Source of the DNA: Pseudidiomarina andamanensis
Lineage (GTDB): Bacteria; Pseudomonadota; Gammaproteobacteria; Enterobacterales; Alteromonadaceae
Direction of reading: 5' to 3'
Assembly (NCBI RefSeq): GCF_009734345.1
Contig: NZ_CP032551.1
Location: 330,001 to 362,000, forward strand
DNA: 32,000 nt
How positions within the stretch are numbered: the first letter of the stretch is position 1; the number at the start of each line of letters is the position of its first letter. Positions 1 to 5,254 of the stretch are shown in pieces. The notes under the pieces are model-generated. The model was not told where the DNA came from. It saw only the letters and a list, made by a program, of their open reading frames with translations, and made no database searches. A program made the translations under genes and the position numbers.

Positions 1-54
1 CTAATCGCGGCGTTTCACTGTAATCTGATTACAGAGCATTGTTAAATATTGAGT

Positions 55-83
55 AAAACCCCGCTTTTTAGCGGGGTTTTTTT
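55..83 (+). terminator. Rho-independent terminator (bidirectional shape) ending a gene that lies upstream of the window
   Basis: AAAA-CCCCGC-TTTTTA-GCGGGG-TTTTTTT. The 6-bp GC stem pairs 59-64 with 71-76, the loop is 6 nt, the T-run is 77-83, and an A-run sits on the 5' side. Confidence 0.6.
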
Positions 84-169
84 GTTTCTCTTGAACTATT
101 GTTATAGAAGACATGTCGAATTAAAAAATGCTAGTCTATTGATCGAGAACAACATAAGAGGAATTCTCC

Positions 170-514
170 ATGAAAGCGATGAAAAAATCAGTTTCAGTAG
201 CAGTGGGTGCATTATTAGTAAGTGCAGCGGGTGTAACAGCTTCTGCGAATCCATTTGGTTTTACTGAGTTACCTGGTGGCTATCAGCAAGAGCAGCAACA
301 GCAACAGAAGCAAGAAATGCGTTGCGGCGGAAACAAAGATGCCAAGAAAGCCAAAGAAGGCAAATGTGGCGAAGGCAAGTGCGGTGAAGGCAAATGTGGT
401 GGCGACAAAGCCATGGAAAAAATGGACGAGAAAGCTAAAGAACGCATGAGCGAGAAAGCCAAAGAAGGTAAATGTGGCGAAGGCAAATGTGGCGAAGGGA
501 AGTGCGGCGCATAG
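170..514 (+). CDS. Secreted Cys-Gly repeat RiPP precursor (HvfA-like / MNIO substrate), 114 aa
   Basis: RBS AAGAGGA at 155-161, 8 nt before the ATG. The N-terminus MKAMKKSVSVAVGALLVSAAGVTASA|NP is a Sec signal with an AxA cleavage site. The mature part has a polyQ stretch, one RCGG site, and two blocks of AKEGKCGEGKCGEGKCG separated by a Lys/Glu/Met-rich spacer. All 7 Cys are followed by Gly. The gene sits immediately upstream of, and overlaps, a DUF692 gene. Confidence 0.85.
   Translation: MKAMKKSVSVAVGALLVSAAGVTASANPFGFTELPGGYQQEQQQQQKQEMRCGGNKDAKKAKEGKCGEGKCGEGKCGGDKAMEKMDEKAKERMSEKAKEGKCGEGKCGEGKCGA
356..400 (+). repeat. Three tandem 15-bp units (GAAGGCAARTGYGGY), each encoding EGKCG; block 1
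   Basis: Read directly: gaaggcaaatgtggc / gaaggcaagtgcggt / gaaggcaaatgtggt. Confidence 0.95.
464..508 (+). repeat. Three tandem 15-bp units, each encoding EGKCG; block 2, a duplicate of block 1 including the preceding GCCAAA (AK)
   Basis: Read directly: gaaggtaaatgtggc / gaaggcaaatgtggc / gaagggaagtgcggc, followed by GCA TAG. Confidence 0.95.
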
Positions 515-1314
515 TTGGTTTAGGATTACGACGGGAGTTCTTAGCGGACGTTTTGCAACAGAATCCCGTCGTCGATTTTTGGGAAATCGCACCAGAAAAT
601 TGGCTCGAGCGTGGCTATGAAGCAACCTATCAGCTTGATCGCCTGCGCGAGCATTACCCGTTGTTTTGCCATGGTCTCTCGCTGTCTATTGGCAGCCCCG
701 ATCCGTTAGACGAATCTTTTATATTAAAGATTAAAGCATTTCTCGAACGCTTCAATATCGACCGTTATAGCGAACATTTAAGCTATTGCTCGGCAGGCGG
801 TCATTTGTATGATTTACTGCCTATCCCTTTCAGTGAAGAAGCTGCCGATTATGTTGCACAGCGTGTGAAGCGCGTTCAAGAGCTATTAGAGCGTCCTTTG
901 ATATTAGAAAATGTTTCGTACTATGCGCCGGCCGCAACGGAACTTAATGAACTTGAGTTCATTAATCGCGTGTTAGAACAAGCCAATTGTGAACTGTTAC
1001 TTGATGTGAATAATGTGTTTGTGAATAGCGTCAACCATCAGTACGACCCAATTCAATTTATCAAGGGATTACCAACTGAGCGCATCAGTTATGGGCATAT
1101 TGCCGGACACTTTGAAGAAGAACCTGACCTGCTCATTGATACGCATGGTGCACCAGTGCGCCCCGAAGTATTAGAGTTACTGGCATTAAGTTATGAGCAT
1201 CATGGCCCATTTCCGGTGTTGTTAGAACGTGACTTCAATATTCCACCTTTAGCCGAGCTATTGAAAGAAATGCAGGCAGTCAAAAATGTAACGCAACAGC
1301 CTGAGGTTGCATGA
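502..1314 (+). CDS. DUF692 / multinuclear non-heme iron oxidase (MNIO; MbnB/HvfB/BufB family) peptide-modifying enzyme
   Basis: The translation has family hallmarks: VGLGLRREF near the N-terminus, FWEIAPENW, HGLSLSIGS, SEHLSY, YDLLPIPF, LILENVSYY, LLLDVNNVFVNS, GHIAGH, IDTHG and LLERD. The start is ambiguous. The ORF is open from ATG 472, with ATG 487 and GTG 502 also in frame. I chose GTG 502 because it leaves only about 5 residues before the conserved GLGLR. All candidate starts overlap the precursor 3' end. Confidence 0.85.
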   Translation: MRRIVGLGLRREFLADVLQQNPVVDFWEIAPENWLERGYEATYQLDRLREHYPLFCHGLSLSIGSPDPLDESFILKIKAFLERFNIDRYSEHLSYCSAGGHLYDLLPIPFSEEAADYVAQRVKRVQELLERPLILENVSYYAPAATELNELEFINRVLEQANCELLLDVNNVFVNSVNHQYDPIQFIKGLPTERISYGHIAGHFEEEPDLLIDTHGAPVRPEVLELLALSYEHHGPFPVLLERDFNIPPLAELLKEMQAVKNVTQQPEVA

Positions 1315-2099
1315 GTAATTTTCAGCGTATTCAACAACAATGGTCGCAGTGGTTGCGTCAACCGGATAGCGCTGAACGGCCAAATGTCGAAGGGCGACGT
1401 TTAAAGGTGTATCAGCGGTTGGTTCGTAACAACATAGAAAGTTTTATCACAAGAGGCTTTCCGGTGTTGTTCAGCACTCTGACTACAGAGCAGGAACGTG
1501 AAATGCTGCGCGCCTTTGTGGCAACGCATCAATCAAAGTCACCGCTATTTTCGGCGATTGGAGCTGAATTTGTTGAATTTTTAGCGACGTTTGAAGCGCC
1601 ATGGTTACCTGAATGGAGTTATCAACTCGCTGTTTACGAACGTATGGAAGTTGATGTCTATCATTTTGACTTGCCTTGTATTTTACCGCCGCTTGATACC
1701 GAACTAGAGCAAGTTGTTTGGCAAGTAAACCCATCACTGCAGTGGCATGCATTTGATTATCCCGTGCACACCATTCAACCTGACATCATTCCGAGTGAAC
1801 CGCTTGAGCAGCCATGTTATTTGGCGGTATATCGCGTTGATGACATCGGCAATGATAATTTCACGTCCGCGGTCAAATTTCTGCAACTTAATGCTGTTAC
1901 CATGATGCTTGTCGATTATTTGATTCAGCGTCCTCATCTTACACTGCTGGCAATTGCTGAACATCTAGCCGGTCAGTTACCACAATTTTCGCCAGAACAA
2001 TTGCATCAAGGTTTGCTCGCGACGGTGCCAGAAACTATACCAAAGAGCTTTGTTGTTCCCGAGCCACAATTAAAGTATGATCCGCACCGCAAATTTTAG
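1311..2099 (+). CDS. DUF2063 protein (MbnC/HvfC/BufC-type partner of the MNIO; predicted substrate-recognition subunit)
   Basis: An ATGA start/stop overlap joins it to the DUF692 gene. The N-terminus FQRIQQQWSQWLRQPD...RRLKVYQRLVRNNIESFITRGFPVL...SPLFSAIGAEFVEFL matches the DUF2063 N-terminal pattern. Its position is the same as in known MNIO operons. Confidence 0.8.
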   Translation: MSNFQRIQQQWSQWLRQPDSAERPNVEGRRLKVYQRLVRNNIESFITRGFPVLFSTLTTEQEREMLRAFVATHQSKSPLFSAIGAEFVEFLATFEAPWLPEWSYQLAVYERMEVDVYHFDLPCILPPLDTELEQVVWQVNPSLQWHAFDYPVHTIQPDIIPSEPLEQPCYLAVYRVDDIGNDNFTSAVKFLQLNAVTMMLVDYLIQRPHLTLLAIAEHLAGQLPQFSPEQLHQGLLATVPETIPKSFVVPEPQLKYDPHRKF

Positions 2100-2117
2100 T
2101 CAGTGAGGTTGTATTTT

Positions 2118-2243
2118 ATGGCACATGATGAAAACTTCCGTGATGAATCGGGCGTAAAAATGGGCTGGCTTGCAGTAATCGTATTTGTTGCAGTACCAGT
2201 ATTACCAGCAATTTTAGGTTGGTATAAGTTCTTTTCAGCATAA
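2118..2243 (+). CDS. Small single-pass membrane peptide, 41 aa (MAHDENFRDESGVKMGWLAVIVFVAVPVLPAILGWYKFFSA); below the ORF-track length cutoff
   Basis: GAGG at 2105-2108 lies 9 nt upstream of ATG 2118. The peptide has a charged N-terminus followed by a roughly 22-residue hydrophobic helix with aromatic ends, and stops at TAA 2241-2243. It starts 18 nt after the DUF2063 stop. No homolog recognised. Confidence 0.45.
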   Translation: MAHDENFRDESGVKMGWLAVIVFVAVPVLPAILGWYKFFSA

Positions 2244-2267
2244 GCTGTTAACTTAAATAGGCATATT

Positions 2268-2663
2268 ATGTCACTTCAATTATTGCTGGTTGAGGATAAA
2301 CCAGCGACGCGGGAGCAATTGCTGCAAATTATTGAGCAAAGCCCGTTTACGGTTAGCTGTGCCAATGATGGCCTCGACGGCTTAAATCGTTCTAAAAGTC
2401 AGTATTTCGATGTGGTGTTGGTGGATCACAAGATGCCATTGATGGACGGCTTGGCGCTGATTAAAAATCTGCGTCAGTCGGAACATTACCAACAAACGCC
2501 AATTATTTTGATGACCACACAAGATGCTGCGCAAGTTCAACCACTAGCAGATAAAGCTGGTGCGAATTTGTGCTTGCCAAAACCTGTAGAAGCGCAACGT
2601 CTTTTGGGATTACTCAATGATCTTGCTGCGACAACAGGTAATCCGCAACAAACAACTGCCTGA
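2268..2663 (+). CDS. Single-domain response regulator (CheY-like REC only, no output domain)
   Basis: LLLVEDKP (acidic pocket), VLVDHKMPLMDG (phospho-acceptor Asp), ILMTT, and LPKP (conserved Lys). At 131 aa there is no DNA-binding domain. Confidence 0.85.
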   Translation: MSLQLLLVEDKPATREQLLQIIEQSPFTVSCANDGLDGLNRSKSQYFDVVLVDHKMPLMDGLALIKNLRQSEHYQQTPIILMTTQDAAQVQPLADKAGANLCLPKPVEAQRLLGLLNDLAATTGNPQQTTA

Positions 2664-2671
2664 GATATTCA

Positions 2672-3190
2672 ATGCAGATAGAAAGCTTTATCCGAGCCAT
2701 TCCGGATTATCCAAAACCCGGCATTTTATTTCGTGATATCACACCGCTACTTGCTGATGGTGAAGCATTTCGGCACACGATTAATGTACTTGCTGAGCGT
2801 TATCGTGAACAAGGTGTTACCAAAATTGTAGGCATTGAAGCTCGTGGGTTTATTTTTGCCACCGCATTAGCTTACGCGATGGGAATTGGCTTCGTGCCCT
2901 TACGGAAGCCGGGTAAACTGCCACGCAAAACCGTGTCACAAACGTATGCGCTGGAGTATGGTGAAGATAAATTGGAACTTCACGCTGACGATATTAACGC
3001 TGCCGATAAGGTGGTGGTCGTTGACGATTTACTGGCGACCGGTGGCACAATTTTGGCAGCGGTAGAAATGCTCAAGAAGCAGCAAGCGACCATTATTGAA
3101 TGCGCATTTATTATCACGCTTGCAGATTTACCAGGTGCTCAGCGGTTACAACAAGCCAAGATTCCATACTATACCCTGTGCTCATTTTAA
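2672..3190 (+). CDS. apt: Adenine phosphoribosyltransferase
   Basis: IPDYPKPGILFRDITPLL, GIEARGFIF, and the PRPP loop VVVVDDLLATGGT. It sits upstream of dnaX, as in E. coli. Confidence 0.95.
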   Translation: MQIESFIRAIPDYPKPGILFRDITPLLADGEAFRHTINVLAERYREQGVTKIVGIEARGFIFATALAYAMGIGFVPLRKPGKLPRKTVSQTYALEYGEDKLELHADDINAADKVVVVDDLLATGGTILAAVEMLKKQQATIIECAFIITLADLPGAQRLQQAKIPYYTLCSF

Positions 3191-3238
3191 GGTAAGTTAG
3201 CTACTTATCTGAAGCGACAGATTGAGAAGATATTGGCC

Positions 3239-5254
3239 ATGAGCTATCAAGTTCTCGCACGTAAGTGGCGACCCCGCAATTTTGGCGAAGTAGTTGGGCA
3301 ACAACATGTGTTGAAGCCGCTCTTTAATGCCTTACAAACAGGTCGATTACATCACGCCTGGTTACTCACCGGTACTCGCGGTGTTGGTAAAACAACCATT
3401 GCTCGAATACTTGCAAAAAGCCTCAATTGTGAGCAAGGGATCACCGCGGAACCTTGCGGTCAATGTAGTGCCTGCACGGCTATCGATCAGGGACGCTTTG
3501 TTGATCTTCTAGAAATCGATGCCGCTTCACGAACCAAAGTTGAAGATACGCGTGAATTACTCGATAACGTACAGTACGCACCAACCCAAGGTCGCTTTAA
3601 GGTCTATCTGATAGACGAAGTGCACATGTTATCGCGCCATAGCTTCAATGCGTTGTTAAAAACGCTTGAAGAGCCGCCTGAGCACGTTAAATTTTTATTA
3701 GCGACAACTGACCCGCAAAAACTGCCTATTACGGTGCTATCCCGCTGTTTACAGTTCAATTTGAAAGCGTTGTCGCGCGATGAAATTGCCAACCACTTAA
3801 TGCAGGTACTCAAATCCGAGAATATCGCTTTTGAGGAGCCGGCAATACAGGCATTGGCGCGTGCCGCGCAGGGCAGTATGCGCGATGCTTTGAGTTTAAC
3901 AGACCAAGCCATTGCGCAAGGCGACCATTCGGTAAGCATGCATGGCGTGCAACAAATGCTTGGCAGTGTTCCGAGTTTCCAATTAATTAACCTGATGCAA
4001 AATGTGTTGAGTGGTGATGCGGAAACAATGCTTAGTACGCTAGAGCAAGTTGCGGGACAAGTACCTGATCTCAGTGGGTTATTGCCAGAGCTGCAAAACC
4101 TTATTCACCAGATGGCATTGTACAAAGCGGTGCCAGAAACCGCCCATGCCACCGGTTTAGAGCAAGCTGGGCAGCATTTAGCACAGCAGTTACCAGCTGA
4201 GTTATTACAGGTGTTCTACGACATATTGGTTCAAGGTCGTCGTGATTTAAATTACGCGAGTGACGTTCGTAGTGGTGTCGAAATGACGCTACTGCGCTTA
4301 ATGGCATTTCGGCCAGAATATCTCGAGGTAGTAGAAACGCCGGCCGAGATGGTCACCAAGATAAAGCCAGTAACAGCAACGGCACCACCGCCATCGGCCC
4401 TGACTGATGATATGCCAGCAGAGCGGTTGCATCAGGTAGATAATTCGAATCATCACGATGCGGCAAATTATGATGCGGTTGCTGAAGAACCTGAGTCTCA
4501 TACAGAAGTTCGTGGCGAAGTTAATCCAGAAGCGAATGCAGAACAAGCTGCCGACTTTAATGAAAGTGTCGCGCCATCTGAATTAGAAGGGACGCAAGAG
4601 CCCACCCCGCAAAGTGATTTACAGGCGCTGTTAGCAACACGTAGCGCACTGGCGCAAAAAAAAAATCGTGAAGTAACAACAAGTGAAGCTGCCAACGAGC
4701 CGGCTCAGAAACAACCTGCAGTTGAACAAGCTGACACCAAGTTGAATCAACAGGCTAAGCATGAACCGCCTCAAGAGCAGCCTCAAGAAGCTGCTCAAAC
4801 AGCGCCTCAATCAGCGGAAAACACGCCGATTGAGATGCCAGAAATTGATGCGCAAATCACCGATAGCACGCAACGGGCCGCAGAAATTGATCGTTGGTCA
4901 GCCATGATTGATGCACTCGATTTGCATGGTTTGACGCGGCAGTTGGCGCGTAATAGTGTGTTGCAAAAAGAACACGACCAGTATGTGTTAATGGTGAGAA
5001 AAAACTGGGCCTACCTGTTGAATGACGGCGCAGTCGGCACCATTAAAGAAGCCATGGCGACGCAATTTGATATGACGTTGCGTGATATTTTGGTGGGTGA
5101 TGCCGAGGCTGCAACGCCGGTTGAAATTCAGCAGCGCATTAATACTCATCGATTGAACATCGCGCAGCAAACGCTGGCGAAAGACCCGATTGCGCAGCAA
5201 ATTGAAAGCGAATTTGGAGCACAGCTAAAGGCTGACTCCGTCAAACCAGATTAA
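3239..5254 (+). CDS. dnaX: DNA polymerase III subunit tau (and probably gamma through recoding)
   Basis: MSYQVLARKWRPRNFGEVVGQQHV, Walker A GTRGVGKTT, Zn module CGQCSACTAI, and DEVHML. The track start at TTG 3233 is rejected in favour of ATG 3239, which aligns with the E. coli MSYQVLARKWRP. Confidence 0.95.
   Translation: MSYQVLARKWRPRNFGEVVGQQHVLKPLFNALQTGRLHHAWLLTGTRGVGKTTIARILAKSLNCEQGITAEPCGQCSACTAIDQGRFVDLLEIDAASRTKVEDTRELLDNVQYAPTQGRFKVYLIDEVHMLSRHSFNALLKTLEEPPEHVKFLLATTDPQKLPITVLSRCLQFNLKALSRDEIANHLMQVLKSENIAFEEPAIQALARAAQGSMRDALSLTDQAIAQGDHSVSMHGVQQMLGSVPSFQLINLMQNVLSGDAETMLSTLEQVAGQVPDLSGLLPELQNLIHQMALYKAVPETAHATGLEQAGQHLAQQLPAELLQVFYDILVQGRRDLNYASDVRSGVEMTLLRLMAFRPEYLEVVETPAEMVTKIKPVTATAPPPSALTDDMPAERLHQVDNSNHHDAANYDAVAEEPESHTEVRGEVNPEANAEQAADFNESVAPSELEGTQEPTPQSDLQALLATRSALAQKKNREVTTSEAANEPAQKQPAVEQADTKLNQQAKHEPPQEQPQEAAQTAPQSAENTPIEMPEIDAQITDSTQRAAEIDRWSAMIDALDLHGLTRQLARNSVLQKEHDQYVLMVRKNWAYLLNDGAVGTIKEAMATQFDMTLRDILVGDAEAATPVEIQQRINTHRLNIAQQTLAKDPIAQQIESEFGAQLKADSVKPD
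4655..4676 (+). other. Candidate dnaX recoding site: an A10 tract (4656-4665) with stops in both alternative frames immediately downstream
   Basis: Zero frame: CAA AAA AAA AAT CGT. The -1 frame reads AAA TCG TGA (stop 4669-4671). The +1 frame reads ATC GTG AAG TAA (stop 4674-4676). The layout resembles E. coli A AAA AAG followed by a nearby UGA. Confidence 0.5.

Follow-up and report, generated by a model that had tools for sequence, protein, structure and literature searches.

The 32-kb stretch of Pseudidiomarina andamanensis DNA analysed here as a whole (the window; GenBank records QGT94927-QGT94930 by exact-sequence look-up) very probably carries, at 87-2067, an hvfABC-type cassette that makes a copper-binding thiooxazole peptide. 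Such cassettes also go by the names Buf_EGKCG/oxazolin, Lys-Cys 'captophorin' and MNIO-PME1, where MNIO denotes a multinuclear non-heme iron oxidase. In the open reading frame (ORF) map three genes lie within 170-2099: a precursor gene with a Sec signal (hvfA), an overlapping gene for an MNIO of the DUF692 type (hvfB) and a gene for a DUF2063 partner (hvfC, locus tag D3795_01500). The first two overlap by 13 nt with the hvfB start at GTG 502, and the ATGA at 1311-1314 joins the second to the third. The initial annotation of this window, made without database searches, had described the same three overlapping genes, which the ORF map and the family models bear out, and had read them as an operon for a secreted, copper-binding peptide that is made on the ribosome and modified after translation (a RiPP), about 88 aa long and carrying at most seven modified cysteines, a reading to which the models and motifs described below lend support.

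The locus belongs to a well-surveyed family, is already annotated and has a close analogue, FonABC, that has been characterised. The exact HvfA protein is named by NCBI as 'HvfA family oxazolone/thioamide-modified RiPP metallophore', the exact HvfB as 'HvfB family MNIO-type RiPP peptide maturase' and a 253-aa strain form of HvfC as 'HvfC family RiPP maturation protein', the earlier GenBank names having been 'hypothetical protein' and 'DUF692 domain-containing protein'. The statement in the initial annotation that such proteins are usually annotated as hypothetical or UPF0276 is therefore out of date.

HvfB matches PF05114 (MbnB_TglH_ChrH) with E = 7.7e-103 (343.8 bits; cut-off 25) and passes the NF003818 model of HvfB family maturases (399.9 bits; cut-off 360), while its best solved-structure relative is the Histophilus somni MNIO 3BWW (2.8e-72). 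We aligned it with 3BWW and with FonB, HvfB and NgoB as given in SI Table S6 of PMC13097082, a machine-read PDF from which identities are approximate. The iron-ligand motifs of sites 1-3, namely HGLS (H57), SEHLS (H92), LEN (E136), LDVNN (D168, N171), HIAGH (H199), DTHG (D213, H215) and LLERDF (E242), are complete, as is the catalytic Asp D244, and all are invariant across the four proteins compared. Both the MNIO model matches and the iron ligands on which the initial annotation had made its reading depend are present. N171, D213 and H215 align with N175, D242 and H244 of Haemophilus influenzae HvfB, substitutions of which abolish activity (bioRxiv 10.64898/2026.07.17.739211). D244 and F245 align with D249 (the catalytic base) and F250 (a specificity residue) of FonB, and R10 and R11 of the GLGLRR motif with FonB R15 and R16; together these four FonB residues set selectivity for E-x-K-C-G substrates (PMC13097082). 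Because this Arg-Arg and Asp-Phe signature aligns with that of FonB, the window HvfB is classed by its sequence as a Lys-Cys-type MNIO, in keeping with its precursor.

The same comparisons bear on whether the cassette might instead be a bufferin system of the Buf1/DUF2282 or Buf2 kind. Bufferin operons share the gene logic of a Sec precursor, an MNIO and a DUF2063 partner, and the match of HvfB to the BufB model is strong (276.5 bits). It nevertheless falls under that model's cut-off of 310, whereas HvfB is over the cut-off of its own family; the precursor has no DUF2282 match, nor any other in Pfam, and is built from EGKCG units, and the enzyme bears the Lys-Cys-type signature just described. 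We consider a bufferin assignment extremely improbable.

The hvfB reading frame is open from 472 to 1314 and offers three in-frame starts, ATG 472, ATG 487 and GTG 502. GTG 502, which lies inside the final EGKCG repeat of hvfA and would give a protein of 270 aa, appears the best placed: four related loci have an ATG (MRHRVGLGLRREF) exactly at its position, the family models begin to align at residue 15 of the ORF counted from 472, and NCBI holds the exact protein in its 270-aa form. The last hvfA repeats supply all three candidates because each unit carries a Shine-Dalgarno-like GAAGG with a start downstream; in the codon unit GAAGGCAAATGTGGC (464-504) the GAAGG is followed 3 nt on by an ATG in the +2 frame.

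The 114-aa precursor HvfA consists of a signal, MKAMKKSVSVAVGALLVSAAGVTASA, and a mature part, NPFGFTELPGGYQQEQQQQQKQEMRCGGNKDAKKAKEGKCGEGKCGEGKCGGDKAMEKMDEKAKERMSEKAKEGKCGEGKCGEGKCGA. Its signal peptide is encoded at 170-247 and is followed by a conserved N-region, ANPFGFTELPGGY, and then by a poly-Q tract. Read by eye, the N-terminus has a Lys-rich n-region (MKAMKK), a hydrophobic core of 16-17 residues and the residues ASA before, and N after, the presumed cut, and the signal and cleavage region aligns with that of FonA; it reads as a Sec signal peptide, with cleavage predicted to leave an 88-aa mature peptide. Every one of the seven cysteines stands in a (K/R)CG context, as the initial annotation had observed. 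Cys52 lies in an EMRCG motif (314-328), and the other six (Cys 66, 71, 76, 102, 107 and 112) lie in perfect EGKCG units arranged as two (EGKCG)3 blocks, encoded at 356-400 and 464-508 and separated by a Lys/Glu-rich linker; the corresponding DNA repeats, at 356-401 and 464-509, have a period of 15 nt. The precursor passes the HvfA-family domain model NF050137 (KCGExKCG_twice) with 37.7 bits over three stretches (cut-off 19.5).

HvfC, encoded directly 3' of the MNIO gene, has a DUF2063 N-terminal domain (PF09836, E = 3.1e-20, 72.7 bits) and an RRE-type C-terminal domain (PF22106, E = 6.8e-16, 58.9 bits), and it passes the HvfC family model NF050145 with 203.6 bits (cut-off 142). Its best solved-structure relative is Neisseria gonorrhoeae PME1 (3DEE, 7.6e-06).

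By sequence identity the closest characterised system is FonABC of Fontimonas thermophila, which makes fontiphorin (Gadgil et al. 2026, PMC13097082); HvfB, HvfA and HvfC are 56 % (260 aa), 45 % (115 aa) and 31 % (221 aa) identical to their Fon counterparts. The corresponding identities to the Ngo proteins of N. gonorrhoeae are 47.5 %, 38 % and 31 % (the last over the N-terminal 83 aa), and those to the Hvf proteins of H. influenzae are 43 %, 49 % (repeat region, 70 aa) and 31 % (N-terminal 87 aa). In the fon cluster only A, B and C are listed, without a DoxX gene, as in the window; its product carries seven 5-thiooxazoles and binds copper (PMC13097082). FonA shares with the window HvfA a Sec-type signal, an F..[DE]L.GGY N-region, Lys-rich linkers and seven cysteines in EGKCG units that include a triple block, and FonB retains the R-R and D-F residues. 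The two precursors differ in block layout (1+3+3 in the window, 2+3+2 in FonA) and in the longer Met/Glu-rich linker and the poly-Q tract of the window HvfA, and the two systems differ in host and genomic site.

The NCBIfam families that all three window proteins match above cut-off were founded on the HvfABC(X)/oxazolin system of nontypeable H. influenzae. That system shares with the window the EGKCG repeats and the Sec signal (PMC11252979), and its product shows -4 Da per Cys and Cu(I) binding, with HvfC required (PMC11252979; bioRxiv 10.64898/2026.06.05.730506; 10.64898/2026.07.17.739211). Unlike the window, H. influenzae has a DoxX gene, hvfX, and three AEGKCGEGKCG double units; its HvfB has some 22 inserted residues that are missing from the window HvfB, and its HvfA has an N-terminal disulfide pair where the window HvfA has the single EMRCG Cys. 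MmrABC of Microbulbifer, which makes bulbicupramide and was compared by description, also comes from a marine gammaproteobacterium, with a cluster of mmrA-C only at a conserved chromosomal site, a strain-variable number of EGKCG cysteines in MmrA (5-8) and a thiooxazole, Cu(I)-binding product; MmrA differs, again by description, in its leader/core layout and di-Cys cassettes, and the Mmr product possibly remains inside the cell (PMC12538549). The bufferins (BufABC, with Buf1/DUF2282 or Buf2) resemble the window in their MNIO and DUF2063 pair and Sec-exported precursor, and their products are 5-thiooxazoles with a role in copper stress, but the precursor family is different and the clusters usually include DoxX and often an ECF (extracytoplasmic function) sigma factor with NrsF (PMC11626156, PMC12452194).

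On the model of FonABC, HvfABC and NgoABC, we infer the chemistry, the number of modified sites, the copper binding and the physiological role as follows. The 114-aa pre-peptide translated from hvfA would be engaged by HvfC, without which HvfB would not attain its active mixed-valent Fe(II)/Fe(III) state; in published work HvfB depends strictly on HvfC for its activity (PMC11252979; bioRxiv 10.64898/2026.07.17.739211). With O2, HvfB would then oxidise each Cys in the E-x-(K/R)-C-G units by four electrons (-4 Da) to 5-thiooxazole, six sites being expected in the two (EGKCG)3 blocks and the conserved EMRCG offering a possible seventh. Cys52 is a plausible site by analogy, because FonBC accepts Arg as the third residue of the unit, most residues other than Pro as the second, and only Gly or Ala as the fifth (PMC13097082). 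Sec export and a cut by signal peptidase I after ASA26 would release an 88-aa Lys/Glu/Gly-rich peptide, periplasmic or secreted, whose thiooxazole N/S donors would bind Cu(I), most likely sequestering excess copper. Copper binding and 5-thiooxazole chemistry are documented for the family (PMC11252979, PMC13097082, PMC12538549, bioRxiv 10.64898/2026.06.05.730506). The initial annotation had contrasted an oxazolone/thioamide product of Hvf systems with the thiooxazoles of bufferins; that contrast has gone, since oxazolin, the HvfBC product, has been reassigned by two groups from oxazolone/thioamide to 5-thiooxazole (PMC13097082; bioRxiv 10.64898/2026.06.05.730506). The class is now named captophorins, and the two predicted signs of modification, a chromophore near 302-305 nm and a mass change of -4 Da for each Cys, are still valid.

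Methanobactin biosynthesis by MbnABC has in common with the chemistry proposed here a four-electron oxidation of Cys by an MNIO in a ribosomal peptide and a product that is a copper ligand, and differs in the oxazolone/thioamide formed, in a leader peptide in place of the Sec signal, in its MbnC partner and in its dedicated transport genes. A methanobactin-type reading of the window, in which oxazolone/thioamide formation would yield a copper-acquiring chalkophore imported by way of the neighbouring TonB system, could appeal to the original 2024 assignment of HvfA as oxazolone/thioamide (PMC11252979), since revised as noted above, and to the position of the cassette directly 3' of an operon encoding TonB, ExbB, ExbD and a tetratricopeptide repeat (TPR) protein. 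The MbnB model, however, gives HvfB only 37.3 bits against a cut-off of 325, and members of the family are reported to be induced by excess copper and oxidative stress and not by copper starvation (PMC13097082), which disfavours a chalkophore. A strong terminator separates the TonB operon from hvfA, no gene lies between that terminator and hvfA or within the cassette that could encode a cassette-specific receptor or exporter, and genomes without hvf carry the identical operon. Its adjacency is incidental, TonB-linked uptake of the peptide was rejected on the same ground, and we regard the methanobactin-type reading as highly improbable.

Several points weigh against the assignment of the cassette as a functional producer of a copper-binding thiooxazole peptide. 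The equivalog model of H. influenzae HvfA, NF050188, fails (23.1 bits; cut-off 95) and aligns with the repeat region alone, so that the window HvfA is, by these scores, a family member below an ortholog-grade equivalent of the H. influenzae protein. FonBC left a single-repeat substrate unmodified in vitro (PMC13097082), and it is uncertain on that account whether the lone EMRCG is modified. For EGKCG peptides the literature entertains more than one possibility in vivo, among them detoxification and either intact or proteolysed products (PMC13097082), and in Microbulbifer the mmr genes stayed silent in the conditions tested (PMC12538549). Support for the function of the window locus is sequence-based.

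The last such point concerns HvfC. DNA alignment reveals a 1-nt insertion in hvfC, AAA at 2032-2034 against AA in the related loci L001 and L002, which shifts the frame after residue 241 and moves the stop to a TAG at 2097-2099 from the consensus TAA at 2071-2073 (253 aa). Through residue 241 the protein matches the 253-aa form of other P. andamanensis assemblies at 100 % identity; beyond it the window has TIPKSFVVPEPQLKYDPHRKF where that form has LYQRALLFPSHN. The last 12 residues, with the consensus LYQRA(M/L)LFPxxx, are thus swapped for 21 unrelated ones, and the conserved C-terminus is not intact in the window sequence. The LYQRA(M/L)LFP tail is kept in all six relatives, down to those with an HvfC only 67 % identical overall, and the insertion is unique to this assembly, the six relatives and the other P. 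andamanensis assemblies all keeping the 253-aa frame. The insertion could weaken or abolish maturation; the extra A is an error of the assembly or else a lesion, specific to this strain, in a partner protein that is required. The cassette might then be impaired in this strain, with HvfC inactivated and HvfA exported unmodified or binding copper weakly through its thiols. The uniqueness of the insertion and the strict requirement for HvfC speak for this, but the protein still matches the two Pfam domains and, of the 237 positions in the HvfC model, 233; the change is limited to the extreme C-terminus and the additional base could stem from misassembly, and we consider impairment unlikely.

The assignment as an hvfABC-type cassette (features in Table 1) draws further support from six related loci (L001, L002 and L011-L014), where the same cassette occupies the same site. 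In pairwise alignment, homology to the hvf-less loci L003 and L004 ends on the left at about 86, just past the TPR terminator, and on the right homology to hvf-less loci begins at 2068, just 5' of a retained -10 box (TATGAT). From these alignment boundaries, a cassette of about 1.98 kb stands in place of about 31 nt, including a -35 box, of the hvf-less loci. Neither direct nor inverted repeats flank it and it has no GC anomaly, so that flanks and base composition cannot decide between gain and loss of the cassette.

Table 1. Features of the hvf cassette and its immediate surroundings in the window
Feature	Position	Strand	Basis
Rho-independent terminator of the upstream TPR gene; left boundary of the cassette	55..83	+	11-bp stem, then T-run
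Candidate hvfA promoter, ECF-sigma-like	92..120	+	Conservation across hvf-positive loci
hvfA, precursor, 114 aa	170..514	+	ORF map, NF050137
hvfB, MNIO maturase, 270 aa, putative start GTG 502	502..1314	+	PF05114, NF003818
hvfC, DUF2063 partner of PME1 type with RRE domain, 262 aa	1311..2099	+	PF09836, PF22106, NF050145
Remnant promoter of the resident small gene, within the hvfC 3' end	2053..2081	+	Comparison with hvf-less loci
41-aa single-transmembrane protein, MAHDENFRDESGVKMGWLAVIVFVAVPVLPAILGWYKFFSA; neighbour outside the cassette	2118..2243	+	Conservation with or without hvf
Receiver-only (REC) CheY-like protein; neighbour outside the cassette	2268..2663	+	PF00072, E = 8.8e-24

The initial annotation had also singled out the lack of a DoxX-type gene. 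Neither a DoxX nor a copper gene was found among 20 further ORFs scanned in the 32-kb window, where the dnaX-adk genes and most his genes were placed by synteny only. As a distinctive feature this absence is unremarkable, because the fon and mmr clusters, as reported, comprise A-C only and because a 2025 survey of MNIO systems, with about 2,000 Buf_EGKCG/oxazolin precursors, found RiPP, MNIO, DUF2063 and DoxX genes 'in various combinations' (PMC12452194); the window falls inside the described range. The scanned ORFs encode MAPEG, hydrolases, an aminotransferase, MatE, three his-operon proteins, a helicase, a TsaD-family protein, Slp, an acyl-CoA ligase, RNase D, a transglycosylase, DsbB and FadR.

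The 41-aa transmembrane peptide and the REC protein, which had been taken as a further distinguishing feature, do lie immediately 3' of hvfC, and no convincing terminator separates them from it. A five-gene system in which they are working parts, for instance in the place of DoxX or as a regulator, is also favoured by the replacement of the small gene's own -35 box by hvfC coding sequence, which makes co-transcription with hvf possible. In eight loci without any hvf gene (L003-L010), however, the order is TonB/ExbB/ExbD/TPR, 133 nt, 41-aa gene, REC, apt, dnaX, ybaB, recR, htpG and adk, and the small gene, REC, apt and dnaX form a unit with a good TTGAGA-N17-TATGAT promoter. Because the pair occurs there with its own promoter and without hvfABC, its function is independent of hvf, and the two genes are independent residents outside the hvf system. 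Such partners are also absent from the genes reported for EGKCG clusters in two surveys (PMC12452194, PMC13097082), and we judge a five-gene system very unlikely. The traits once deemed distinctive of this locus are already documented (no DoxX) or belong to unrelated neighbours (the transmembrane peptide and REC).

The small ORF encodes 41 aa from its ATG, or 46 aa counted from GTG 2103. The 41-aa protein has no Pfam or NCBIfam match and just four homologous clusters in an index of 5.8 billion proteins, all Idiomarinaceae-like and without a family; the commonest (P0004, 85 % identical) is the one that sits in L003-L010. Relative to L003 and L004 the ORF shows mostly synonymous third-position changes along all 41 codons, by which it is to be regarded as a real translated gene. 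An RNA element at this position, suggested by the near-perfect identity of the 5' half among the window, L001 and L002, was ruled out by the same synonymous changes. The 41-aa gene and REC form a conserved pair 5' of apt-dnaX (2118-2663 in the window; 6001-6546 in L003-L010), with or without hvf, and apt follows REC after 8 nt.

In the hvf-less loci a sigma-70 promoter, TTGAGA or TTGTGA-N17-TATGAT, lies 5' of the small gene (L003 5934-5962). The window retains the -10 TATGAT (2076-2081), and its -35 is degraded to the hvfC-coding TTGTTC (2053-2058), so that read-through from hvf into the small gene and REC is possible. The fuller proposal, that in the Pseudidiomarina lineage hvfABC overwrote the -35 of the unit of small gene, REC and perhaps apt and, having no terminator, exposes it to read-through from a stress-responsive hvf promoter, we consider unlikely; if true, it would tie an orphan receiver protein to copper or oxidative-stress induction.

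A scan for sigma-70 promoters found no promoter-like site 5' of hvfA. The alignment of all seven hvf-positive loci shows a conserved ACTATT right behind the terminator, with a conserved GT some 18 nt farther downstream, and in the window the motif reads TGAACT (92-97), a spacer of about 17 nt and GTCGAA (115-120). It resembles the AAC...CGT/GTC pattern of ECF sigma promoters and is a candidate on that basis; related clusters are often under ECF control, and no regulator gene lies near it. An Rfam scan of 1-3400 at permissive E-values returned nothing above threshold; the weaker matches all fell on the hairpin of the terminator (about 50-130), and none lay in or after the cassette. The window itself starts in the final codons of the 435-aa TPR protein (window 1-83; L002 3323-4630), the last gene of a DUF3450 - ExbB - ExbB - ExbD - TonB - TPR operon that the strong terminator closes. 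Farther downstream, a quick search found no slippery heptamer AAAAAAG inside dnaX.

As a textbook-grade MNIO-PME1 'EGKCG' metallophore cluster, of a kind that one survey found in roughly every second Pseudomonadota reference genome (PMC13097082), the locus matters little beyond correct bookkeeping and the confirmation that this class is recognisable by a reader without tools. It does offer a natural comparison, between close relatives with and without a cassette of about 2 kb at one fixed site and among precursor alleles with 6-9 repeat cysteines; this comparison could serve to examine, in a marine host that is not a pathogen, the hypothesis of copper sequestration. The frameshift allele of hvfC is likewise a natural test of the need for the partner's conserved C-terminal tail.

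Among the relatives the precursors range from 109 to 142 aa and from 7 to 10 cysteines in total, with block layouts of 3+3, 4+3, a five-unit first block (one unit degenerate, EGKKG) plus 3, and 3+3+3, while the signal peptide, ANPF(G/S)(F/Y)xELPGGYQQ and EMRCGG are conserved. The differences in block number suggest recombination within the 15-nt repeats, and gain or loss of (EGKCG)3 blocks in this way could tune copper capacity, the window precursor having six repeat cysteines and those found in close relatives up to nine. Three blocks are present in L001 (1043-1471) and L002 (4776-5204), with an extra 28-aa unit, against two in the window (356-508); L012 and L013 have longer first blocks, and it is in L012 that the degenerate unit occurs. 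ORFs of 64-118 aa in other frames or antisense also run over the repeat region (255-449 on the + strand, 269-625 and 283-486 on the - strand); these are low-complexity artefacts of the Gly/Lys/Glu codon repeats and not genes. The poly-Q tract, a CAG/CAA repeat at 284-313, likewise differs in length, reading QQEQQQQQKQ in the window and QQEQQQQQQQQ in L001.

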